DNA of 42,251 bases from Candidatus Hodarchaeota archaeon (GCA_016839815.1 JAEOTM010000154.1:1-42251), one strand, 5' to 3'. Counted from the first letter of the stretch, positions 29,530 to 42,249 are shown. A program made the numbers and translations. Notes: generated by a model from the letters alone, not told the origin.

Positions 29530-30459
29530 TTGCCACAACGAACCAGAAGGAAAAATTTGCTGGAAATCTCTAACCAGCCTGAACTCTGGATTTTCAGTAA
29601 TCTACTGGCTGAAAAGTGGATTAATGAAAATAACCTAGAAGAACCAGTTTTTGAACGACGAGTAACAATGCCTTTCTCACTCCCTTCTGGTAGTGCGATC
29701 TTTAAAATTGAATCTGAAGGTACCCAAGGGGATGTAATATCTTTTTCAATTGCCCATTCGTCTGAAATTTATCTTATCCAGTTATTGGATCCCGCACAAT
29801 TTCTAAAATTTAAACAGACAGTGCTATCAGCAGTAGAAACAATCTATAATGAGAATTTCAATTTTTTTAGTTACCTTAAACCCTACTTTCTACCAAAATT
29901 AAGAGAATTTGGTGTTATGGAAGTCCTAGGGGATACACCTATTCAAGATTTAGCTGATTATGGAGTAAAATCAAGAATTTTACAACGGATATCAGATCCT
30001 GTCCAGGGATATGAGGTACCACAATACTGGCGCGTAAACAGGAATTTAGAAGCTTTACAGAATAAGGAATTGCGAAATGAAAACCGAATTTTCTCCCTCC
30101 GCTCAGCTATCTGTGATCGATTGGCTAAACATGCAGTAATTGAAAGTCTCCGATGTGCCGTCATTACACTCAAGCGTTATGCAGATTTACTTGATAGCAT
30201 GACTTCCGAATCTAAAATCGAATATTCTGATGAATATTTGGAACTTGCTGACGGTTTATATCAATTAGGAGAGTTTCAAGACTCCGCTGTGTTTTATTCA
30301 AAATGCTTATCACATTCAAATTTTGAACATAAGGAGGAAGAAGTTCGGAATAAAATATTAGCTGCATTAAAATCGTCAATAGAACAGCTGGAACCCCAAG
30401 AGTTCCTTGAATATGCGATATTCGCAGCAAGAGTTGCACGTGGACACGAAGAAAATTAG
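29530..30459 (+). CDS. Hypothetical protein with C-terminal TPR-like helices
   Basis: TTG start preceded by GGAGG; YLELADGLYQLGEFQDSAVFYSKCL fits a TPR consensus. Confidence 0.65.
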   Translation: MPQRTRRKNLLEISNQPELWIFSNLLAEKWINENNLEEPVFERRVTMPFSLPSGSAIFKIESEGTQGDVISFSIAHSSEIYLIQLLDPAQFLKFKQTVLSAVETIYNENFNFFSYLKPYFLPKLREFGVMEVLGDTPIQDLADYGVKSRILQRISDPVQGYEVPQYWRVNRNLEALQNKELRNENRIFSLRSAICDRLAKHAVIESLRCAVITLKRYADLLDSMTSESKIEYSDEYLELADGLYQLGEFQDSAVFYSKCLSHSNFEHKEEEVRNKILAALKSSIEQLEPQEFLEYAIFAARVARGHEEN

Positions 30460-31203: not shown

Positions 31204-31507
31204 TAGTCCATTTTCTCCTATAATATTCTCAAAATAAAGCAAAGTAAAAAACTAATCTAGAACTTGAATTTAATTACCAAAAAATCGTCGGGCTACTTAA
31301 AAAATTCAGAATATTATCTGAATATTATATTTTATAGGAGGATAAGATCCTTCCAGAATTTAGCATTCCTTTTTAAGTAGAAGAATAATAAAGAAATAGA
31401 CTGACAAGTGAGATAAGTGTTAGGATATTGGTACTAGTCCTGATAATTTATCGTTCTAAGTGATTCTCAGGCTTTATTTCACAGAAAAAATTTTCGAGGA
31501 ACATTCA

Positions 31508-32212
31508 TTGAGTCAAGAAGAAGAGCTGGTGTTTGAAGAGTCGCAACAAGGGATAAAAATTGTTATCTGGGGACCAACATTAGCAGGAAAAACTACAGCA
31601 TTAAGCTTATTCCATGCAATCAAGAAAAAAGAAGACCCTGAAAGTGTTTATAATTTTTTAAAACTTGAAGATAAAGCTACGGAAAGAACTATTGGTTTTG
31701 ATCAAGCTACTTTTGGTTTAGGTGGCGGTCCAGGTAAAGGCTTCAAGTACCACCTTTTCACAACCCCTGGGCAGGATAGATTCAAATCCATGAGAAAAAT
31801 CGTAATTAATGGGCTTCATGGATTGATAGTAGTAATCGATTCAGAGAAAGCTCGATGGGATGAGAATAAGGATAGTCTGAAAGAACTCTTTGAAGTTTCT
31901 GGGGATAAAATCTATTCTGGAGAAATAAAAATCGCTATTATGCTCAACAAGATGGATTTACCTGTAGAGTCACGTATAAGTGCAGCAGATGTTGGGAGAT
32001 TAATGCTAGAAGCTGGCGTTTCTGATTCGTTACGCGACACGTTTGCGAGTACGTTCGAAGTCAGCTGTCTAGATGCATTAAGTGCACTACGAGATGCGTG
32101 GAATAAGGGGGAATGGAATCCAAAACAACGCCCCCAAGCGGTTCAAAGGATAATTCAACCCATTCAGATGGTCATTCGTGATATTCTTATTTCAGAACTA
32201 CAAAAGCGCTGA
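31508..32212 (+). CDS. MglA-family small GTPase
   Basis: G1 GPTLAGKTT, G2 ERTIGFD, G3 TTPGQ (T instead of D, an MglA hallmark), VIDS, G4 NKMD. Likely TTG start at 31508 after GAGGA. Confidence 0.88.
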   Translation: MSQEEELVFEESQQGIKIVIWGPTLAGKTTALSLFHAIKKKEDPESVYNFLKLEDKATERTIGFDQATFGLGGGPGKGFKYHLFTTPGQDRFKSMRKIVINGLHGLIVVIDSEKARWDENKDSLKELFEVSGDKIYSGEIKIAIMLNKMDLPVESRISAADVGRLMLEAGVSDSLRDTFASTFEVSCLDALSALRDAWNKGEWNPKQRPQAVQRIIQPIQMVIRDILISELQKR

Positions 32213-32418: not shown

Positions 32419-34305
32419 ATGTATAAAAATAAATTACAAGAAATTATTGCAGGTCGTCATAAACTTGAAGAAAAAGAGAGATTACGGTTAGATCTTAAAC
32501 CATCGGTGATTCCTCCCTTACCAAAAGGAAAGGACGCTTTAACTCCTACGACAAATGCTGGTTGGCAAACTGAGGGTATAATTCGTGCTATTATATCGAA
32601 TCTTCATAATGGAAAAAATTGGGAGCATCTTTTCATTTATGGAGGCAGTGGGAAAGCGATGAGAAATTGGAAAGCATACCATGAAACCATAGATATGCTA
32701 CAATCTCTCAAGTCCAACGAAACCCTTTTCATGCAATCTGGAGTTCCTTATGGAAAAACTATAACCCATGAATTTGCCCCGAGATGTGTTGTGACAAATT
32801 CGGTTATAGTACCAAACTGGACACAATCATTTCAAGAAATGGTTGATGCAGGTTTGACGGTTTATGGTCAAATGACCGCAGGGAGCTGGATATTTATTGG
32901 ATTACAGGGAATAATTCAAGGTACTTTTGAAACGATGATGGCAGCAATTAAATCGGCTGAAACATCTGATAATTATAGGAAATTGAGTCCATTCGAACAG
33001 AAAATTATCGTTACTGCAGGACTTGGTCTTATGGGAGGAGCTCAGGCTTTAGCCATAAAAATGGCTGGAAAGATCGCAGTAATAGCAGAAATTGATCCAT
33101 CAAATTTAGATCGTATGTATAATGAAGGACGAGAAAAAGGAACCCCATATTTGGACATACAGGTTGATTCCATTGAAGAAGGGGTAAAACTAGCTCAAGA
33201 ATACGCTGAAAAAAAAGAACCTACCTCCATCGGAATATTATGCAATGCAGTCGACTTATTAGACTATTTACTTGAAAAAAGAATTACTCCTCATGTTATT
33301 ACTGACCAAACTTCAGCTCATGACATGTTAAATGGCTATATACCCTCAGATCTGTCTTATACCGAAGCAGTGGCACTTAGGAAATCTAATCCAGACAAAT
33401 ATAAAAAATTGGCGTTTAAAACTGTGAAATCCCATGTAAAATTAATGGTGGAGCTACAAAAGAGAGGTGCTGAAACATTTGACTATGGTAACAATATTCG
33501 TACCCAAGCTTTTAAAGAGGGTTATCAAAATGCTTATGATTTTTCCGGATTTGTCCCTAATTACATTAGACCACTGTTTTGTGAAGGAAAGGGACCATTT
33601 AGATGGGCCGCTTTATCTAACAATCCAAAAGATATCTTAACGACTGATAGATATGCTGAAATGCTTTTTCATGATGATAAAATGTTAATCAATTGGATCA
33701 ACCTAGCATCGAAGTATATTCCATTTGAGAAAGGATTACCTGCGCGAGTGTTTTGGGCGGGTTACAGAGGTAGAGCAGCATTTGGTATGTTACTAAACAA
33801 ACTTTATGCTGATGGACTGATTGATGCACCTGTAATTATAGGTAGAGATCATTTAGATGGAGGATCAGTTGCTAGTCCTTATAGAGAAACTGAAGGAATG
33901 AAAGATGGATCAGATGCGATCGGTGATTATCCTGTTTTAAATCTATTAGGAAATGCTCTTTCTGGAGCGACATGGGTCAGTTATCATGGGGGAGGGGGAG
34001 TTGGAGTTGGGTATTCTCTTCATGCAGGACAAGTATGTGTTGCTGATGGAACTCAAATCTCACAGGAACGATTATTTAGAGTACTTACTTGGGATCCTAT
34101 GTCAGCTATATTACGTCATGCAGCAGCTGGCTACGATCAGTCTCTTCAAGTCGCAAAAACAAATGGAATTATTGTACCTGGAAACACAGAACAAAAAAAT
34201 AATGATTACAGGGAATTATATGAGGAATTAATAACAGTTGTAAAGGAACGTACTGGAATAAACTTATTTTCCCCCTCTAGTAGTATGAATCTTCAAATTT
34301 TGTAG
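32419..34305 (+). CDS. hutU: Urocanate hydratase
   Basis: IYGGSGKA, YGQMTAGSWIFIG.QGI.QGT, TAGLGLMGGAQ, TDQTSAHD, FDYGNNIR, FCEGKGPFRW, GRDHLD, GGGVGVG. Confidence 0.96.
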   Translation: MYKNKLQEIIAGRHKLEEKERLRLDLKPSVIPPLPKGKDALTPTTNAGWQTEGIIRAIISNLHNGKNWEHLFIYGGSGKAMRNWKAYHETIDMLQSLKSNETLFMQSGVPYGKTITHEFAPRCVVTNSVIVPNWTQSFQEMVDAGLTVYGQMTAGSWIFIGLQGIIQGTFETMMAAIKSAETSDNYRKLSPFEQKIIVTAGLGLMGGAQALAIKMAGKIAVIAEIDPSNLDRMYNEGREKGTPYLDIQVDSIEEGVKLAQEYAEKKEPTSIGILCNAVDLLDYLLEKRITPHVITDQTSAHDMLNGYIPSDLSYTEAVALRKSNPDKYKKLAFKTVKSHVKLMVELQKRGAETFDYGNNIRTQAFKEGYQNAYDFSGFVPNYIRPLFCEGKGPFRWAALSNNPKDILTTDRYAEMLFHDDKMLINWINLASKYIPFEKGLPARVFWAGYRGRAAFGMLLNKLYADGLIDAPVIIGRDHLDGGSVASPYRETEGMKDGSDAIGDYPVLNLLGNALSGATWVSYHGGGGVGVGYSLHAGQVCVADGTQISQERLFRVLTWDPMSAILRHAAAGYDQSLQVAKTNGIIVPGNTEQKNNDYRELYEELITVVKERTGINLFSPSSSMNLQIL

Positions 34306-34371: not shown

Positions 34372-34836
34372 ATGAATTATTCAACACAAGAATCCCCATC
34401 AATCTCTCAGTGGATATCAGAACACAAAGGAATTACTTTTTCTTCACTTTTCGGTGTAATATTCACAAGCATCGACATCCTCGATAGACTTGGATACGAA
34501 ACGACTGCTAGTGGACCAATGTTGATAATGATGGAAACTGTTCTATTAATTATCATCTTCTTTGGAATGTTGATTTTTATCTATAACTTTGGATACATAG
34601 TAATCATGTTAGCCGTTGATGAGGGTTTAAATGATGAAGAAGTAATTCTAATTAAATGGATTTTGCGTAGAGCTGTTTTAATATCAGCTGGATGGTTCAT
34701 CGGAGTTATTTTACTGATGTTAACGTTGAGCGATCAGCCGTATATGTTAGCGGGAATAAATTGCTTTCTATTAGCCAGTTTGTTGTATATCCTTAGAAAA
34801 GGTGAAAATCCTTTAGTTGAAGGAGTTTCAGTTTAA
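34372..34836 (+). CDS. Small integral membrane protein (about 4 TM)
   Basis: Four hydrophobic segments; ATG 34372 is in frame with the track ORF at 34333. Confidence 0.65.
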   Translation: MNYSTQESPSISQWISEHKGITFSSLFGVIFTSIDILDRLGYETTASGPMLIMMETVLLIIIFFGMLIFIYNFGYIVIMLAVDEGLNDEEVILIKWILRRAVLISAGWFIGVILLMLTLSDQPYMLAGINCFLLASLLYILRKGENPLVEGVSV

Positions 34837-34867: not shown

Positions 34868-37825
34868 ATGGTTGGACGTGAAGAAAAATCACTGGAAAAT
34901 TGTGAAGTAATCTCTTCTTTTTCAGATTTTAGAGGGAATAGAGAATTAAAACTTCTATTAATTCTTCTGGCTATCGACCCAACAATAAACGGAATAGTAA
35001 TCCTTGGGATTACTGGAACAGGAAAGTCATTAATTCTCAATTTATTTAAACAATTAAAGATACCTACACTTTTTAATAAAAATTGTGCTTTCAATTGCTC
35101 CCCCAGCGGTAAAGTACTATGTAAAAAGTGTAATAACGCACCAATATCTATCCCAGAAAATGATATTCAGCATTCCTATATTCCTATCGTAAAAATGCCT
35201 GTTAGCACCTCGTTAGATGCTTTAATAGGGAGCTTGGATCTTCATTTTAGTTTTAGACCAGGACTATTTGGAAAGGCTAATAATGGGTATCTAATCTTGG
35301 ACGATTTACATCTACTAGCACAAGAATCAAGAACTGTTCTTTTTAACACATGGCAAAGAAGAGCAAATTACATTCAAAGAAATTCTGTTTCACTCGAGCA
35401 CCCTAGTGAATTTTGCTTAATTACAACATATAATCCTACATTCCATGATAAAAATCCGAGCTGGATTGATAAATTCGCTTTCTCTTATCATCTGGATTAT
35501 GATCATACAGTCGAAACACATGTTGATATAATCAATCAAAACCTTGACAAGGAGAGTTTTCATGTTTCACCTGAATTAGCTAAATTATTTAACAAAAATT
35601 CTCTTCTTATAAGAGAAATTCTCCGTTCTCGTGACCTACTCGACAATGTAGTAATATCATCTGAGATTTTGTCTCTTATTGCGGAAATATGTAATTCTAG
35701 TAAATTAGATGGTATAAGAGCTGATATTACTTTTGCTAAAGGAGCCAAAGCTTTGGCTAGTTTTCACAATCGTACGTATGTGACCAAAGAAGATATATTA
35801 TTACTTATCTCTCCTATTCTGTCTCACCGTATGCCTGTAGAGGATTTTGATGATCTGATAGAGTACATTCATTGTAAACAAACCAATAAAGGGATAGAAT
35901 CCAAGAGAAAAGAACAGAAACAAGGACCATCAAGTAAGATTCTCCAAAAAGATGATAAAAAACACTCTTTTTATTCATTAACGGAGAAACTTGTCTCCAT
36001 TTTGAGTATTCTTCTAATCTGTTTTATTGTAAGTGCTCTTCTCGTTAGATTTATATTTACACCCCGGTTATTCCCTGTTATCTTTGGTATTTTAACTTTA
36101 TGGGGAGTAGGATCCTTTCTACTTTATCTTTGGGTACGAAGACGAAAAAATCTACTATCCCAATACAGAAAGGATGAGAATCTACAACATCAACCTCCTG
36201 AGGTTAGTTCCTTTTCCCAAGTGAAATCTTTACGTTTAACAGAGACAACAAAGGAAGATAAACGTGAATTTACGAAAAAACCTGAAATCGATATAGAAGA
36301 AGGTAATTCTGCCCGAGGGAAGATTCTTCAATTTGTTGGTTTTCAAAAACGAAAAGGGATGATTTTAATAACACGATATCAACGATATTGGATCTATGTA
36401 TATGGTATCTTCGTTCTACTAATTAGTACCATTCTTTATATATTTTTACTAATTTACCTTCCACCAGAGGTTTGGATTGCCGTTTTATTCTTACTATTAT
36501 GTCTTTTAACGATAGGATTTCTACAACAGTATAATCAGGAGAAATGGAGAATCAGACGAGTTGCAGATATCGGTGCCTCATCTAGGGAAACAAGCAAAGT
36601 AGTAAATAGTAGCGGGATTGGGTCTCATATTACCAAAGGGAACAATAAAGTCCAGGATGACAACTCAATGGAAGATTATGAGAGTAGGTTGTGGAATAAA
36701 TTATCTAAATTGAATATCATATACCCTGGAACGGAGAACAAAGAACGAAATAGACCTATGTTTTACTTTGGATCAACTGATACACAAAAATCAATATCGA
36801 GAGTAATTGGGGAGAAATTACCTGAAGAAAAAGCGCTTATTGATACGAAATCTCGATATCAAGCTGGTAAACGAGCTTTAAGTCTATCATCGTCCCAATC
36901 AGGAAGGATAATTGGGAGCATACCTTTCAAGGATTCTCCAAGAAATATTCATATAATGGCAACCATAATGAATGCCTTAAGACATCAGAAACATAGAAAA
37001 CAAAAGAATTCGACAAAAAAAATCGACATCAAACTGTCAGATGTTCGAGAGAAACTGTATTGCGCACGAGTGTCGGCTACGATAATATTTGTTCTTGATT
37101 TATCTGAATCTATCGTGAATGTGATAAATACTGTTTCAGCTTCAGTGAACTGGTTGAGTAGACAAGCTTACCTATACCGAGATAGAGTAGGATTAGTTGT
37201 ATTACAAAGAACTCAGGGGATGATAGTTCAATTCCCCACCTCAAACCTAAACCTAGTGAAACGTAAATTAAAAAATTTAAAAGTATCTGGATCGACCCCC
37301 TTACCCGCTGGTATACAGAAAGCCTTAGATTTAATCCGAATTGACCGTATTAGAAGTAATAATGAGACTATTCCTATGATAGTGTTAATTACTGACGGTG
37401 CGACAAATATTCCACTGTTAACAAATCCAATAACGGGAATAAAACGAGATATACCGATATCAGCTCTTGGAATTGATTCAGCTATTAAAATGTCTATAAA
37501 CGACTGTCTAATTCTTGGGCAACAAATAAAAAATAGCAAAATATCATTAGTGATATTCAGTACCAACATCCAAGGGAAAGCTTTGCTTCAAAAATACACA
37601 GCGAAAGAACGACACAATCCTACACAATTCCTTGAAACTCTCATGAAAACAACAGACTTCTTTCAGGGAAAGCAATTCATTCAGCTTTGGTCTTATACAT
37701 TATTAATATCCTTACGAAATATTACAAAAGGGCACCTTTTTTTCCTAACAAAGGAATATTCTGATAGAAATTTCGAAACATTACGAATCGCTCGATCTGA
37801 AATCATAACAGAACTTAACAGTTGA
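34868..37825 (+). CDS. ChlD/BchD-like chelatase-family AAA+-vWA protein with four inserted TM helices
   Basis: ChlI-type AAA module (LAIDPTINGIVILGITGTGKS, FRPGLFGKANNG, HPSEF, DGIRADITF), ChlD-type pre-vWA segment and vWA MIDAS (DLSES, GSTPL, ITDG); two hydrophobic helix pairs lie between them. Confidence 0.85.
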   Translation: MVGREEKSLENCEVISSFSDFRGNRELKLLLILLAIDPTINGIVILGITGTGKSLILNLFKQLKIPTLFNKNCAFNCSPSGKVLCKKCNNAPISIPENDIQHSYIPIVKMPVSTSLDALIGSLDLHFSFRPGLFGKANNGYLILDDLHLLAQESRTVLFNTWQRRANYIQRNSVSLEHPSEFCLITTYNPTFHDKNPSWIDKFAFSYHLDYDHTVETHVDIINQNLDKESFHVSPELAKLFNKNSLLIREILRSRDLLDNVVISSEILSLIAEICNSSKLDGIRADITFAKGAKALASFHNRTYVTKEDILLLISPILSHRMPVEDFDDLIEYIHCKQTNKGIESKRKEQKQGPSSKILQKDDKKHSFYSLTEKLVSILSILLICFIVSALLVRFIFTPRLFPVIFGILTLWGVGSFLLYLWVRRRKNLLSQYRKDENLQHQPPEVSSFSQVKSLRLTETTKEDKREFTKKPEIDIEEGNSARGKILQFVGFQKRKGMILITRYQRYWIYVYGIFVLLISTILYIFLLIYLPPEVWIAVLFLLLCLLTIGFLQQYNQEKWRIRRVADIGASSRETSKVVNSSGIGSHITKGNNKVQDDNSMEDYESRLWNKLSKLNIIYPGTENKERNRPMFYFGSTDTQKSISRVIGEKLPEEKALIDTKSRYQAGKRALSLSSSQSGRIIGSIPFKDSPRNIHIMATIMNALRHQKHRKQKNSTKKIDIKLSDVREKLYCARVSATIIFVLDLSESIVNVINTVSASVNWLSRQAYLYRDRVGLVVLQRTQGMIVQFPTSNLNLVKRKLKNLKVSGSTPLPAGIQKALDLIRIDRIRSNNETIPMIVLITDGATNIPLLTNPITGIKRDIPISALGIDSAIKMSINDCLILGQQIKNSKISLVIFSTNIQGKALLQKYTAKERHNPTQFLETLMKTTDFFQGKQFIQLWSYTLLISLRNITKGHLFFLTKEYSDRNFETLRIARSEIITELNS

Positions 37826-37832
37826 ATCTCAA

Positions 37833-38672
37833 ATGAATGAACAAATAATAAGTCTTCCAAAGCAATTATTTCGACAAGGAGAAATTATCCCAGTAAAACT
37901 GCAATACCCGCCTTCAGACCTTCCTATCCAGAATAGTCGAATTAAGTTAACTGGACGAGAGAAAGTAGAATTTACTTTCCAATCTTTTATGGGTAAAAAA
38001 GGCTTTCAACCAATTTGGGGACTATTCCTTCCTAGTAAACATTTTCATCAAGAAACCACTTTCTTAGATGAGATCATTGCTACCCCAATATCTGAGAAAG
38101 GGGATGAATTAGTCGAAATCGAGATTCCTATTAATGCCATTCCATCGTATTATGGAGAAAATGGAAAAGTAACATATCTTGTCCAAGTGCAATATGAGAA
38201 CAGAGATGGGGAAGAAAAACAAGACGAAGTCCAAATTCTAATCGACTCAGAGTATCAACTAAAAAACCTAAAAGACATAGTCAATATCAGATCAGGAAGT
38301 TTAACTATACAGCACACTAGTCCATTAATCATAAACAAGGAAAATTGTATCTCAATTACCACACAGAACATTAATACACCTATACGATTGATATTAACTG
38401 GAAATGAGACGGTAACTGCATCTAGCATTACTATCAATAATCCTGTTAAAGAAGTGCCACTAGGTCAATTTTTTTCTGAAGAAAACATAACAAACATGCA
38501 AATGGAATTTATTATCCCATCAGAATATCAACAAAGTTTCAAAGGACTACAGGTGCGACTCGAATATGCAATTGAAATACAAACTGTTATTTCTCAATCT
38601 CATTTTGGATTTAAACATGAGAAAGTTCAAACACAATCACGAATCCCAGTTTGTGTTAAAGATAAAAAATAA
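37833..38672 (+). CDS. Arrestin/Vps26-fold protein (two arrestin-N-like lobes)
   Basis: IKLTGREKVEF...IEIPINAIPSYYGENGKVTYLVQV and LILTGNETVT...FIIPSEYQQSFKGLQVRLEYAIEI; both match the arrestin pattern P-S-(F/Y)-x-G-x-x-x-x-(I/V)-x-Y. Confidence 0.7.
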   Translation: MNEQIISLPKQLFRQGEIIPVKLQYPPSDLPIQNSRIKLTGREKVEFTFQSFMGKKGFQPIWGLFLPSKHFHQETTFLDEIIATPISEKGDELVEIEIPINAIPSYYGENGKVTYLVQVQYENRDGEEKQDEVQILIDSEYQLKNLKDIVNIRSGSLTIQHTSPLIINKENCISITTQNINTPIRLILTGNETVTASSITINNPVKEVPLGQFFSEENITNMQMEFIIPSEYQQSFKGLQVRLEYAIEIQTVISQSHFGFKHEKVQTQSRIPVCVKDKK

Positions 38673-38806: not shown

Positions 38807-39250
38807 ATGTTACGAATGGAATTGGGACCTGTCCTAAATGATATCATAAATTGGAGCTTAAGAATTATTGGAATTAGTATCGGACTTTCAATTTTAAGTA
38901 TTTTTATAACTGTAGATCTTTCACAATCCAGTAACCAATTCATTGATATTTTTGTACTATCTTTGAGTAATTTTTCATTTTTTATTGGTATGCTCGTAAT
39001 CTGTGCTGGATTGTTAATAATTTTTCTTAAAAAACCAGAAGGTTCAAGTTTTTCCAAGGAAAGGAAAAGTAAATTTAAACCAAAATACAAAAAAGAAAGA
39101 ATGAAAACCTCTCGCCAAGTAGAAGAAACCTCTTCTTCAAATACAGCACTGTTCTCCAAACGAGAATACAAGATGATATTTAGTGGTACAGTAGCAGTTC
39201 TCTTCGCAGTTGTTTTATGGTTAGGTTACTCTGTAATCAAAATGATTTGA
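38807..39250 (+). CDS. Three-TM membrane protein with a basic cytoplasmic loop (DUF3899-like architecture)
   Basis: Two TM helices, K/R-rich loop, terminal TM. Confidence 0.6.
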   Translation: MLRMELGPVLNDIINWSLRIIGISIGLSILSIFITVDLSQSSNQFIDIFVLSLSNFSFFIGMLVICAGLLIIFLKKPEGSSFSKERKSKFKPKYKKERMKTSRQVEETSSSNTALFSKREYKMIFSGTVAVLFAVVLWLGYSVIKMI

Positions 39251-39264
39251 TCATAGTCCTGGTT

Positions 39265-40020
39265 TCAAGGTTGAAATAAGGAAAAAGCAATCAATATTGG
39301 GAGAGGGGAAAGACATAATGAAATGAGAATTGCATAAGCATCCCGAAGATCTTGATTTCTATTAAAGAATATGTATATCGATACAATTGACTTTTCCAAG
39401 AATAAAATAAGAAGGAAATTATGAAGAATAGAGTCTAATAGTGTAATCTCACGGAATTCTAGTTCCTCAGTGTTAAATCTAGTATGCCAAGGTGAAATTG
39501 ATTCGAGTCCCGCATCGAGAATCGTCATGACTCTCTCATTATCTAGTTCGACTTCTACCCATGCATGCCATTTACCAATTACGACATAGCTGTCATATCC
39601 TCGTAAAATTAGAAGTGAGCATGCAACAATTGCTAGTCCGTCACAATCGTCTGATCCCCGGTTTAAAACCTCAGAAATACTTGGTCGGTAATCCCATGAT
39701 AAATAATTTGTGATATCTTCACCATACGTTATTCGTTGACTTATAAACCTACTAACAGCGTAAATTTCTAATTCGTCTGGATCAGAAGGATAAGATGATA
39801 GAACTATAAATTTATTTGTAAAATAATATTCAAACTCATAATTTAAGACCTTAATCTGAGGATCCTGAGGTTTTATTGTCTCAGTGAGAGCAATTCGGTG
39901 ATTTATTTGATCAGGCCAGGCAAGAGGATTGGGAGTGAATCCTGTAAAAAGATAAACTATGGTTAGAAGTCCTACAACAAGTAATTCCTTATGTGAGATG
40001 ATTCTAAGATTCATCGTCAT
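39265..40020 (-). CDS. Membrane-anchored transglutaminase-like (papain-fold) protein
   Basis: GSDDCDGLAIVACSLL, HAWVEV and ILDA give a Cys-His-Asp triad; N-terminal signal/TM and C-terminal TMs. Confidence 0.85.
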   Translation of the reverse strand: MTMNLRIISHKELLVVGLLTIVYLFTGFTPNPLAWPDQINHRIALTETIKPQDPQIKVLNYEFEYYFTNKFIVLSSYPSDPDELEIYAVSRFISQRITYGEDITNYLSWDYRPSISEVLNRGSDDCDGLAIVACSLLILRGYDSYVVIGKWHAWVEVELDNERVMTILDAGLESISPWHTRFNTEELEFREITLLDSILHNFLLILFLEKSIVSIYIFFNRNQDLRDAYAILISLCLSPLPILIAFSLFQP

Positions 40021-40254: not shown

Positions 40255-42249
40255 CTAATTATTTGTTTTATCCTCAATATCATCTTTTTTAAGAATTTGG
40301 GTCACTTCCTCGGCTGCTTTTTTCCTGGAAGCGATAAATCGATCTTTTGAAATCTCCTCCAATCGATCAACCATAGGTTGGGTCAATAAACTTCTCGTGG
40401 GAATATTTTCTTGCAATCGATGAATTTTCCCTTGATAATATACAGTGGTTAACAAGAAGAATAGCATTCCAACAAAGAACAGAGGTTGGAAGTCATAATA
40501 CAATGGAATAGCTTGAAAACGGCCCAAATTGCTATCAAAACTTATAAGTTCTTTGTAAAAAGCCAATGCTAGATGATATGCAGAGGCATAATTCATCTGG
40601 TTGTAATCATAAAGGATATCTTGATATGAGGCATTTAAATAAAGTAAATAGGATTGAAGATCAGAATTATAAATTTTTGTGTCTATGACCTGATAAGCAG
40701 AGTTTATTTTAAATATCGATGCCTGAAGCAATGTATCAATTTGACCCCGTTGAATATTATCTTTAGAGAATATACTAAAATGGGATGCATGAGTGTAATA
40801 AGTCATAGGATCATTAACGAAATTTCCAGTCATGCCGTACTGGAACGGATGCATTAGAGCGATCTGATGTCCAAGTTCATGGATAATTGTCTGTGTTAAT
40901 CCTTGTAATGGCTGGGGGTTTGAACGATTATTCCCAAAAGTGATACCAAAATCATGACTTATGATAGTTAACGGAATATCATTGATGGTTCTTAGAGCTA
41001 TACCGATAAGTCCTGGTTCTAACTTTGCTTTACTTGGAATTGCAAACGTGGCATTATCAAACAGAAAAGCAAAAGTTCGAAAATGTGTTGTATAAAAGGC
41101 CTTAAATTCCTGCTCCATAAAGCGAGAAGATTCAGAAGTTAATTTATTATACATAGGAACGAGATCCACAGAATATTCCCAGCGAGAATTCTTATTAAAA
41201 TCTCCCCAGTGTACCGTTGCTTCTTGAACTACATTATAAAGCTCTGGAATATCGGTAAGATTGACGAAATTGACAGAGACGTCAATCTGGTACCAAGGAA
41301 TTATTTCTTTAAAAACTTCCTTAATGAGGGTAGTATTAACAGTCCAATTAAGGTCTGAAGTGGCTATTCCAGACATATTATTTAAAACTAAAATTTCAAT
41401 TGCGAACTCTAGGCCTGTTTCAAGATCACCCATTGGTATTAATGGTTTATAAACAAAATCTTGAACCCAGAGGTTTCTTTCGATCTCATAGATCCATTCA
41501 GCGAGATATTCTGCTAATCTGGTTCGTCCATATGGTGTACTAAGGTCGTTCAAAAATTGAAATTCTTGAAGGGTGCTATTTTCGCCACTATTTTGTAGAA
41601 CATAAGAATCTGCGGAAAGATCAAGGTAATATAGCCTATCTTGGTCCCCATAACCAATCATAAAATTCCTACCAAAAGGAGCTCCTGAATCTGGATCAGA
41701 ATAGGATTTGTTGTACCAATGTTGTCGATACTCTGAATCATCAAGATTTGAAAAGTTACCGACAATTAAGGTGTATCCAGGTATAGGAGCTTCTCCAGGA
41801 AGTTGCTCATAATTATCTGTTAACCAGTTAAGTGTGTCACTAGCAGAAATATATTTACCTGTATGACTAGTTCCATCAGAACGATTTATTGTATCAGGTA
41901 CCGCAGAATCGTTTAAGAATGTAAAAAATGTTGTATCAAAGTCTGTAGGGGCGAGTTCATAGGAATGATTTATATAAAATAACTTCTCTGTATAATCCTG
42001 TTGGAAAAATTCGTAAACATTTTGTCCAAGTAATGAATAAGATTGGGGACCAAAGGGATTACCGATTATTGAGGTCATTATTCCCTGATCAAATCCTGAA
42101 AAGATAATTCTCGAATATATTGTGGCTGATCGGTACGGGAACATCGGTTCAGAATAGTAATCAGCTGCAACAGGCGTTATATCAATAGTAGCAGTAATCG
42201 ATATTAGAAGAAGACCTAATAGTATAATGTTTTTACGATTTGAATCCAT
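40255..42249 (-). CDS. Exported, C-terminally anchored zinc metalloprotease (metzincin-like)
   Basis: Signal peptide, IIHELGHQIALMHP (HExxHxxxxxH), Met-turn DPMTY, C-terminal TM and charged cytoplasmic tail. Confidence 0.82.
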   Translation of the reverse strand: MDSNRKNIILLGLLLISITATIDITPVAADYYSEPMFPYRSATIYSRIIFSGFDQGIMTSIIGNPFGPQSYSLLGQNVYEFFQQDYTEKLFYINHSYELAPTDFDTTFFTFLNDSAVPDTINRSDGTSHTGKYISASDTLNWLTDNYEQLPGEAPIPGYTLIVGNFSNLDDSEYRQHWYNKSYSDPDSGAPFGRNFMIGYGDQDRLYYLDLSADSYVLQNSGENSTLQEFQFLNDLSTPYGRTRLAEYLAEWIYEIERNLWVQDFVYKPLIPMGDLETGLEFAIEILVLNNMSGIATSDLNWTVNTTLIKEVFKEIIPWYQIDVSVNFVNLTDIPELYNVVQEATVHWGDFNKNSRWEYSVDLVPMYNKLTSESSRFMEQEFKAFYTTHFRTFAFLFDNATFAIPSKAKLEPGLIGIALRTINDIPLTIISHDFGITFGNNRSNPQPLQGLTQTIIHELGHQIALMHPFQYGMTGNFVNDPMTYYTHASHFSIFSKDNIQRGQIDTLLQASIFKINSAYQVIDTKIYNSDLQSYLLYLNASYQDILYDYNQMNYASAYHLALAFYKELISFDSNLGRFQAIPLYYDFQPLFFVGMLFFLLTTVYYQGKIHRLQENIPTRSLLTQPMVDRLEEISKDRFIASRKKAAEEVTQILKKDDIEDKTNN

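Follow-up and report, generated by a model that had tools for sequence, protein, structure and literature searches.

What does a chelatase-type motor subunit do when it is built into a membrane? This question is raised by a gene of a Candidatus Hodarchaeota archaeon, found on a contig of 42,251 nucleotides (nt) (GCA_016839815.1 JAEOTM010000154.1:1-42251), the whole of which is called the window below. The gene (34868-37825, forward strand) is one unbroken open reading frame (ORF) for a protein of 985 amino acids (aa), in which four predicted transmembrane (TM) helices separate a ChlI-type AAA+ module from a vWA domain of the ChlD type. The class I chelatases have a motor made of an ATPase, the I subunit, and of a D subunit that attaches to the ATPase through an AAA-like module and a vWA domain; the linker between these two parts of ChlD is soluble, acidic, and proline-rich. 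To our knowledge, motors of the ChlI/ChlD type are known only as the engines of magnesium and cobalt chelatases. The analysis described here favors, with a probability of roughly 55%, a different role: within a two-component AAA+/vWA motor of the ChlI/ChlD type that no longer works for a tetrapyrrole chelatase, the 985-aa protein would be the D subunit, anchored in the membrane and catalytically degenerate.

Domain structure and membrane topology

The two ends of the 985-aa protein belong to well-characterized domain families. Pfam models match at residues 42-191 (Mg_chelatase), 270-323 (AAA_lid_2), and 739-875 (VWA/VWA_2). Among solved structures (phmmer against the PDB), residues 14-328 match ChlI (8osf, E 3e-38; also 6l8d and 1g8p), and residues 738-850 match the vWA domain of BchD (2x31_A, E 6.6e-10). 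A pre-vWA segment is held in common with ChlD: the match to the NCBIfam model NF009943 (Mg-chelatase subunit D) begins at residue 662, and soluble Hodarchaeales relatives align to the protein from about residue 665. In an alignment of 14 orthologous sequences, G47, G50, G52, and K53 of the Walker A motif (GITGTGKS) are invariant, as are all residues of MIDAS, the metal ion-dependent adhesion site in the vWA domain (D744-L-S746-E-S748, T810, and D843). A preliminary description of the window had recognized an AAA module of the ChlI/ChlD type together with a ChlD-type vWA domain whose MIDAS is intact, and the family matches, structure matches, and invariant residues bear out that assignment. The vWA-coding region also contains a 113-aa antisense ORF (37228-37569, reverse strand). 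Its conservation in tblastn searches is due only to the overlap with the vWA domain, and it is not a gene.

The region between the two modules holds the most unusual part of the protein. Kyte-Doolittle averages over 19 residues peak at 2.1-3.1 across two hydrophobic hairpins, and AlphaFold2 (AF2), supplied with the 14 sequences, predicts helices at residues 367-397, 401-440, 503-530, and 533-568, with predicted local distance difference test (pLDDT) scores of about 72-78. Hairpin hydrophobicity is kept in all 14 orthologues (mean Kyte-Doolittle value 1.8-2.5 per helix), and the prolines at the two turns, P399 and P532, do not vary. The distribution of charge is equally marked: lysine and arginine together number 3.5-5.6 per 15 residues at the four helix flanks versus 0.2-0.3 in the two turns. 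By the positive-inside rule, this bias would put the AAA and vWA modules, and likewise the loop between the hairpins, in the cytoplasm, with only the hairpin tips outside. The preliminary description had put the hairpins at 35990-36136 and 36386-36523, had supposed that four TM helices replace the acidic/proline-rich linker, and had argued from their even number that the AAA and vWA modules are both cytoplasmic. The hairpins were found within about 25 nt of those coordinates, hydropathy and the AF2 helices agree with the four-helix assignment, and the charge distribution favors both the helices and the cytoplasmic location of the modules. The cytoplasmic loop between the hairpins is itself conserved; it carries an SFSxVK motif and an acidic (L/I)D(I/L)EE(D/G)xS motif, D475 and S481 are invariant, and its majority-residue fraction of 0.58 is about the conservation level of the AAA module. 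An origin of the second hairpin as a duplicate of the first was unsupported (hhalign probability 4%).

Such an architecture might also be produced by a chimeric assembly, or by a mis-join at 35900-36600 that fused two genes, and this explanation has virtually no chance of being correct. A search of 5.8 billion clustered proteins returned 13 full-length orthologues (945-987 aa, 38-47% identity) with the same layout; because this unbroken layout is shared by 13 sequences, from independent metagenome-assembled genomes (MAGs) and metagenomes, the 985-aa gene is not a chimera. The linker itself is conserved, synteny is conserved in six other species genomes, and nothing was found in favor of a mis-join. 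All named orthologues come from Hodarchaeota/Hodarchaeales or Heimdallarchaeota MAGs, and identity to orthologues in genomes of the order reaches 68%. An exhaustive HMMER scan of 1.84 billion representatives gave full-length matches in a single stretch only to the 4-TM ChlD-like family and its fragments; among 400 Asgard genomes, the 4-TM form is confined to seven, all of them members of one family. Searches with the linker by itself were less telling: a word-based search (residues 340-735) returned just one orthologue and was uninformative, and an ESM Atlas search gave sub-threshold matches only (0.84 or less).

Catalytic degeneration and the stand-alone ChlI

The AAA module of the 985-aa protein departs from the canonical ATPase at two positions. 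Walker B reads ILDD, with D145 and D146 invariant in the orthologue alignment, and the arginine-finger site (residues 201-203) reads DKF, with K202 in 13 of 14 orthologues and arginine in one; R284 of sensor II is invariant. These motifs were set against those of related AAA modules in an alignment of six 4-TM proteins, two stand-alone ChlI proteins, three Asgard relatives with two TM helices, four soluble Hodarchaeales relatives (fused or split), and 24 other representatives. The Walker B pair DD is confined to the 4-TM proteins, of which five carry DKF and one DRF. The other aligned relatives mostly combine DE with DRF or DRL, with a few DN/EE or ERF variants and a finger of the form DR(F/L/I/M). 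The 985-aa protein thus appears, from its motifs, to have lost its own ATPase chemistry. The same ILDD and DKF motifs had been read in the preliminary description as signs of a weak or inactive ATPase, and that view is in keeping with a degenerate site at which DD and DKF have been conserved in no family but the 4-TM one.

A canonical ATPase is encoded elsewhere in the same genome (G000). The preliminary description had noted that neither ChlI nor ChlH/CobN is present in the window. Nor was CobN/ChlH found in the rest of this genome, which is 89.5% complete; a 349-aa ChlI is encoded on another contig (C100; L037:10062-11108). It matches Synechocystis ChlI (8osf) with an E-value of 2e-89 and retains all catalytic motifs, including DE, DRL, and the arginine of sensor II. 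Stand-alone ChlI proteins of this kind (343-353 aa, 65-83% identity) are restricted to seven of the 24 Hodarchaeales species genomes, precisely those with a 4-TM gene, and are missing from the other 17, although counts among these related genomes are not independent observations. The other matching Hodarchaeales genomes have nothing but a soluble fused form (about 795-807 aa) or a pair split into ChlI-like and vWA proteins; in these forms, the AAA module is canonical and 46-53% identical to ChlI. No separate ChlI was found for the 2-TM forms of other Asgard families. Because a canonical ChlI is found in the same seven genomes and in the same gene island as the 4-TM gene (see below), the 985-aa protein is more likely, on these genomic grounds, to be paired with it as a D subunit than to form a ring that suffices for itself. 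In a tree of AAA modules, the stand-alone ChlI clade nests among the modules of proteins with TM linkers, and the 4-TM modules sit on a long branch. The tree is compatible with duplication followed by a division of labor, but its position is not relied on here.

Both proteins share a further small feature. Four cysteines of the 985-aa protein (C73, C77, C85, and C88) lie between Walker A and Walker B; the motif is kept in most orthologues, and the stretch is deleted in 4 of 14. The stand-alone ChlI has a similar four-cysteine motif in the same place (residues about 55-75), and cyanobacterial ChlI has no cysteine at this position. The motif may form a small zinc knuckle.

Separation from tetrapyrrole chelation

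The chelatase large subunit CobN/ChlH (PF02514) gave no match above the cut-off in the genome of the window and in five other carrier genomes; control genomes did give matches. In the genome of the window, the early tetrapyrrole enzymes 5-aminolevulinate dehydratase (ALAD, HemB) and porphobilinogen (PBG) deaminase (HemC) were likewise not found. Curated chelatase models match the 985-aa protein far below their cut-offs: the best-scoring, TIGR02442 (putative cobaltochelatase), gives 325 bits (E 9e-97) against a cut-off of 779.45, TIGR02031 (BchD-ChlD) gives 233.9 bits against 499.55, and NF009943 gives 109.9 bits against 571. Because searches found neither CobN/ChlH nor ALAD nor PBG deaminase, a function as a tetrapyrrole chelatase was rejected, and these results agree with the earlier proposal that the protein has been decoupled from tetrapyrrole chelation.

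The island between hutU and hutH

In carrier genomes, an island of about 16 kb lies between the histidine-utilization genes hutU (urocanase) and hutH; the 4-TM gene cluster borders hutU, and ChlI occupies the opposite end. The island is contiguous in one genome (G006). There, hutU is followed on the forward strand by a 4-TM protein of the 154-aa type, the gene of the 985-aa type, an arrestin-fold protein, and a 3-TM protein; next, in reverse orientation, come a transglutaminase-like membrane protein, a protein with an HExxH motif, and a five-gene ABC transporter of the Opp/Dpp/Nik type; a small membrane protein (forward), ChlI (reverse), and finally hutH complete the order. In the genome of the window, the same order is divided between the end of the window contig and contig C100, where hutH, an M20 peptidase, glnA, and hutI lie beside ChlI (L037:4414-9952). 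Among genomes lacking the system, hutU is directly followed by hutH in three (G015, G010, and G019), and the two genes are 4 kb apart in a fourth (G014).

One carrier, G004, has a minimal island consisting of hutH, ChlI, a 984-aa gene, hutU, and nothing else; by gene content, the I/D pair is what survives in the reduced island. In a tree of the four flanking genes, the carriers do not form one clade: G004 groups with non-carriers (support 1.0), and G007, in whose assembly no island gene was found and hutU stands at a contig end, is the sister of the carrier G002. On this tree, the island was therefore lost or moved more than once, and ChlI and the 4-TM gene were retained or lost together, as a unit, on more than one occasion.

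The genes around the 985-aa gene are closely packed and largely restricted to the same genomes (Table 1). Six genomes share the tight cluster of the small 4-TM protein, the 985-aa-type gene, the arrestin-fold protein, and the 3-TM protein, and the gaps around the 985-aa gene are only 31 nt upstream and 7 nt downstream. The 154-aa membrane protein has no family match (Pfam, NCBIfam); within the order, it occurs only in the six full-cluster genomes and always adjacent to the 4-TM ChlD-like gene. Five other genomes have the 147-aa 3-TM protein in synteny. The eukaryote-like proteins listed for Asgard archaea include arrestins, and we know of no archaeal arrestin with a known function. The 279-aa protein downstream of the 985-aa gene is modeled by AF2 (pLDDT 77) as two beta-sandwich lobes, and the Foldseek matches listed for it are chains of the arrestin clan, comprising ARRD-6, VPS26C, TXNIP, Vps26, and beta and visual arrestins (from E 4.6e-11, probability 1.00). 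TM-scores are just 0.28-0.36, probably as a result of differing lobe orientation, and the Pfam Arrestin_N match is below the cut-off. A profile search of the 400 Asgard genomes found this protein in six, always beside the 4-TM ChlD-like gene; it was never found alone, and only the converse, an I/D pair without the arrestin-fold protein, was seen (G004). Its most conserved stretch is residues 51-69 (37983-38039), around which S51, G54, K55, G57, F58, P60, W62, L66, P67, S68, and H70 are invariant. This hydrophobic loop between two strands of the N lobe is not placed by AF2 (pLDDT 39-45), and its position is roughly that of the receptor-inserting finger loop of arrestins.

The two reverse-strand genes at the end of the window are restricted in the same way. 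Orthologues of the 251-aa transglutaminase-like protein are limited to the six full-island genomes; their alignment shows no variation at C125 and H151, and family matches are weak (Pfam Transglut_core, E 0.0056; NCBIfam LapG, E 4.7e-4). Five of these six genomes (G000:C162:1982-2494, G001, G003, G006, and G016) have, at another locus, a shorter paralogue (35-40% identity) that is present in no other genome. The 664-aa protein has a weak serralysin match (NCBIfam, E 0.002), and its orthologues (47-77% identity) are found only in the same six genomes. A defense-system function was considered for the seven island proteins and rejected, as PADLOC gave no relevant match for any of them.

Two conserved genes lie beyond the island border. 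An Arf/Ras-like small GTPase just upstream of hutU (31460-32212) is the region's most conserved gene, with 86-96% identity across genomes in which the 4-TM gene shows 42-68%. A 309-aa protein (29530-30459) with a weak match to the XopL C-terminal domain (E 3.7e-4, below the cut-off) is conserved in carriers and non-carriers.

Table 1. Coordinates in the window of the 985-aa protein, its parts, and neighboring genes
Feature	Position	Strand	Basis
hutU (urocanase), left border of island	32419..34305	+	Pfam
Small membrane protein, about four TM, 154 aa from ATG (ORF opens at TTG 34333)	34372..34836	+	hydropathy
985-aa AAA+/four-TM/vWA protein (ChlD-like)	34868..37825	+	ORF; Pfam, PDB, and NCBIfam matches; 13 full-length orthologues
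ChlI-type AAA+ module with lid, residues 17-330	34916..35857	+	ChlI 8osf match, motif table, invariant columns
Walker A	35006-35029	+	
Cys-x3-Cys-x7-Cys-x2-Cys (C73, C77, C85, C88), ChlI-specific insert	35084..35131	+	orthologue alignment
Walker B ILDD	ends 35305	+	
Arginine-finger site DKF	35468-35476	+	
Sensor II R284	35717-35719	+	
Predicted TM hairpin 1, residues 367-423, tight turn at invariant P399	35966..36136	+	hydropathy, AF2, conservation, charge bias
Inter-hairpin loop, predicted cytoplasmic, residues 424-506	36137..36385	+	orthologue alignment
Predicted TM hairpin 2, residues 507-556, turn at invariant P532	36386..36535	+	hydropathy, alignment, AF2, charge bias
Pre-vWA segment common with ChlD, residues 661-735, GKRAxS...SGRxxG...P(R/K)NxH	36848..37072	+	NF009943 and soluble relatives
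vWA domain, complete MIDAS	37073..37822	+	Pfam VWA/VWA_2, BchD vWA 2x31_A, invariant MIDAS
MIDAS DLSES	37097-37111	+	
MIDAS T810	37295-37297	+	
MIDAS D843	37394-37396	+	
279-aa arrestin-fold protein	37833..38672	+	AF2, Foldseek, profile search
147-aa membrane protein, three TM, Lys/Ser-rich loop; last co-directional gene of cluster	38807..39250	+	hydropathy
251-aa membrane transglutaminase-like (papain-fold) protein, convergent with cluster	39265..40020	-	weak family matches, alignment
664-aa membrane-anchored HELGH protein (metalloprotease-like); contig ends here	40255..42249	-	sequence

Relation to known systems and to other TM-linker proteins

The 985-aa protein resembles several characterized motors without coinciding with any of them. 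With ChlD/BchD and ChlI/BchI, and with CobT/CobS, it shares a ChlI-like AAA+ module at the N-terminus, a vWA domain with MIDAS at the C-terminus, and, ahead of the latter, the pre-vWA segment of the ChlD type. The likeness to ChlD/BchD extends to the degenerate catalytic residues and the separate canonical ChlI. In contrast to ChlD/BchD, in which the linker is soluble and acidic/proline-rich, two TM hairpins and a conserved cytoplasmic loop are predicted here; in addition, ChlH/CobN and early tetrapyrrole enzymes were not found, and the gene is clustered with those of arrestin-fold and small membrane proteins. Single-chain ChlI-ChlD proteins of the TIGR02442 type, including the frameshifted fs-chlD (PMC3711429, PMC9227772), similarly unite AAA and vWA modules in one chain, and the nearest archaeal relatives of the 985-aa protein (soluble forms of about 795 aa and 2-TM forms of about 860-890 aa) are of this single-chain kind. 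Unlike the 4-TM family, in which the catalytic residues are lost and a stand-alone ChlI is present, these relatives have canonical DE and DRF and no separate ChlI.

A third comparison is with the MoxR-class pairs NorQ/NorD, CbbQ/CbbO, and RavA/ViaA. By analogy, the principle is expected to be the same, in that a hexameric ATPase would work with a vWA adaptor that holds an acidic client residue at its MIDAS. NorQ/NorD, whose target is a membrane enzyme, has its vWA domain at the AAA+ pore, and the client is bound at the MIDAS through an acidic residue (PMC9976466); the same arrangement is described for CobS/CobT (bioRxiv 10.64898/2026.10.09.757910). The ATPase of the MoxR pairs belongs to the MoxR group, whereas the ATPase here is of the ChlI clade, and no AAA_3/MoxR model is listed for the AAA module. 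A second difference is that the adaptor here would itself be an integral membrane protein with its own degenerate AAA module.

A search for TM-linker architectures beyond the 985-aa family showed that a TM-bearing linker is not unique to it. Strong hydrophobic segments beyond residue 300 were seen in 20 of the 145 top-ranking representatives that were examined (P0033-P0177); two of the 20 are fragments of the 4-TM family. The other 18 (735-1060 aa) have one to eight segments at about residues 375-520 and rank just after the orthologues; all those named carry generic annotations and come from Bathyarchaeota (871 aa), Thorarchaeota/Promethearchaeota (852-862 aa), Hodarchaeota (1060 aa), and Thermoprotei (738 aa), for example UCH02519.1 (Bathyarchaeota), MFW9934831.1 (Thorarchaeota), MFX0094582.1 (Hodarchaeota), and RLE93947.1 (Thermoprotei). 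In the 400 Asgard genomes, one-hairpin ORFs of 840-913 aa occur in several other families. Most other archaeal TM-linker ChlD-like proteins differ from the 4-TM family in having one hairpin (two TM helices), canonical catalytic residues, and no separate ChlI, and the 2-TM Asgard relatives that were checked lie in unrelated neighborhoods in which no arrestin-fold gene or other cluster neighbor was found. Judged from these sequences, the TM-bearing linker is a recurrent archaeal theme, of which the combination of four TM helices, DD, DKF, separate ChlI, and arrestin-fold protein is one derivative. Two of the representatives, MFX0094582.1 (P0041, 1060 aa) and P0048 (926 aa), have about eight and about three hydrophobic linker segments, respectively, and a finger motif that deviates further (FAERF); both are possible further variants embedded in the membrane. 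The 2-TM relatives of one Asgard family (f12) adjoin a DUF4350/IFT52-GIFT-like protein (L072:6739-7626, G104), an unannotated 220-aa protein, and a Cdc48 homologue, a neighborhood that is conserved in four genomes.

A probable membrane-anchored D subunit and its alternatives

If the 985-aa protein is the D subunit of a membrane-anchored motor, the following sequence of events can be envisaged. The hairpins would hold the protein in the membrane such that its AAA module, the conserved loop of about 80 aa, and its vWA domain lie on the cytoplasmic face, as the charge bias suggests. ChlI would form the ATP-hydrolyzing hexamer, by analogy with BchI/BchD, CobS/CobT, and NorQ/NorD, and the degenerate AAA module of the membrane protein, a protrusion of its vWA domain, or both would dock on the ChlI ring. 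As in those systems, a client at the membrane's inner face would then be bound by the MIDAS through an acidic residue, and ATP turnover in ChlI would pull on or remodel that client. The likeliest clients or cofactors would be the arrestin-fold protein and the two small membrane proteins of the cluster, and this is the least-supported step of the scheme. Remodeling of membrane proteins, as conjectured in the preliminary description, is compatible with the evidence.

Several observations weigh against this interpretation. The full-length AF2 model is of moderate quality (pLDDT 62, predicted TM-score (pTM) 0.41), and the TM helices are predicted from hydropathy, charge bias, and AF2. An aspartate at the catalytic position of Walker B is no proof of lost hydrolysis. 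The link to ChlI rests on co-occurrence among related, non-independent genomes, and the ChlI gene lies 12-15 kb from the 4-TM gene, on the opposite strand in most of them. The minimal island of G004 is without the arrestin-fold and small membrane proteins, so these are not obligatory clients. Finally, the genome of the window is 89.5% complete and the carriers are 83-94% complete, and CobN, HemB, and HemC are therefore "not found" rather than proven absent.

Three other functions can be weighed against a membrane-anchored D subunit. Like NorQ/NorD or CobS/CobT, the pair of ChlI and D might serve as a chaperone at the membrane for metal insertion or metal handling, opening a membrane or exported metalloprotein for cofactor loading or serving the Opp/Dpp/Nik-type importer of the island. 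Chelatase subunits are its closest curated models (TIGR02442, TIGR02031), the island encodes a five-gene ABC transporter with an SBP_bac_5 binding protein as well as an HExxH protein, and NorQ/NorD, which inserts iron into the membrane-bound nitric oxide (NO) reductase, sets a precedent for action on a membrane enzyme (PMC9976466). Yet this function is unlikely, given that all chelatase models score far under their cut-offs, that CobN/ChlH was not found in six carriers, and that G004 keeps the I/D pair without the transporter or the HExxH protein. SBP_bac_5 transporters are, moreover, more often peptide importers, and the nearby hut genes, M20 peptidase, and subtilase suggest peptide catabolism.

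Membrane-proximal proteolysis offers a different use for a vWA domain that recruits and an AAA+ ring that unfolds, with the transglutaminase-like cysteine peptidase as the cleaving component. A model of this kind has been published for operons of MoxR, vWA, and TGL (YebA) proteins (PMC3495828), and the convergent membrane transglutaminase-like gene of the island, with its invariant cysteine and histidine and its restriction to the six full-island genomes, would fit it. The fit is poor in other respects: the TGL family match is weak (E 0.0056 and 4.7e-4), the protein has about three TM helices rather than the eight-TM layout of YebA, its catalytic domain probably faces outward by the positive-inside rule, away from the cytoplasmic AAA and vWA modules, it is missing from G004, and the AAA module is of ChlI rather than MoxR type. 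Such a function must be judged quite improbable. The preliminary description had itself favored a membrane-tethered ring or scaffold repurposed away from chelation. As a self-sufficient scaffold, the protein would form its own ring, bind but barely hydrolyze ATP, and act as a nucleotide-gated tether without ChlI. Of this proposal, the membrane tether and the separation from chelation are upheld by the present analysis, whereas the self-sufficient ring is not. Walker A and sensor II are intact, so that nucleotide binding is plausible, and the ChlI gene lies outside the operon; but ChlI accompanies the 4-TM gene in all seven carriers with no stand-alone copy in the other 17 genomes, G004 keeps just ChlI and the 984-aa gene side by side, and the relatives that lack a separate ChlI all retain canonical or near-canonical catalytic residues. 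A self-sufficient scaffold is accordingly very unlikely, and a membrane-anchored D subunit that relies on ChlI for hydrolysis is preferred.

Significance for ChlI/ChlD motors and archaeal arrestins

No paper was found that describes a ChlD-like protein embedded in the membrane or connects one with an archaeal arrestin, and a literature search on Asgard archaea or Hodarchaeales together with vWA, AAA+, or transmembrane terms found nothing. The function of chlI and chlD without the large subunit is described as unexplored by Kuznetsov et al. (2022), who do not mention membranes (PMC9227772). For this open question, the 4-TM family would provide a clean case: no chelatase large subunit or early tetrapyrrole enzyme was found, the D subunit is predicted to be membrane-integral, hydrolysis appears to have been handed to a separate ChlI, and the neighboring genes are fixed.

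A more far-reaching proposal, improbable as it stands, is that the cluster encodes an arrestin-based system for the selection, holding, or extraction of membrane proteins, powered by a ChlI-type motor, in which the MIDAS would load the arrestin-fold protein onto its small membrane partners or release it from them. Such a system would be a prokaryotic counterpart of the arrestin/Vps26 cargo adaptors and, if real, would belong to the archaea that are closest to eukaryotes by descent. If the motor and the arrestin-fold protein were physically linked, this would be the first handle on the role of an archaeal arrestin. More generally, ChlD-like proteins with TM linkers are present in several archaeal phyla, which suggests that chelatase-type motors tethered to the membrane are an overlooked general class in archaea.

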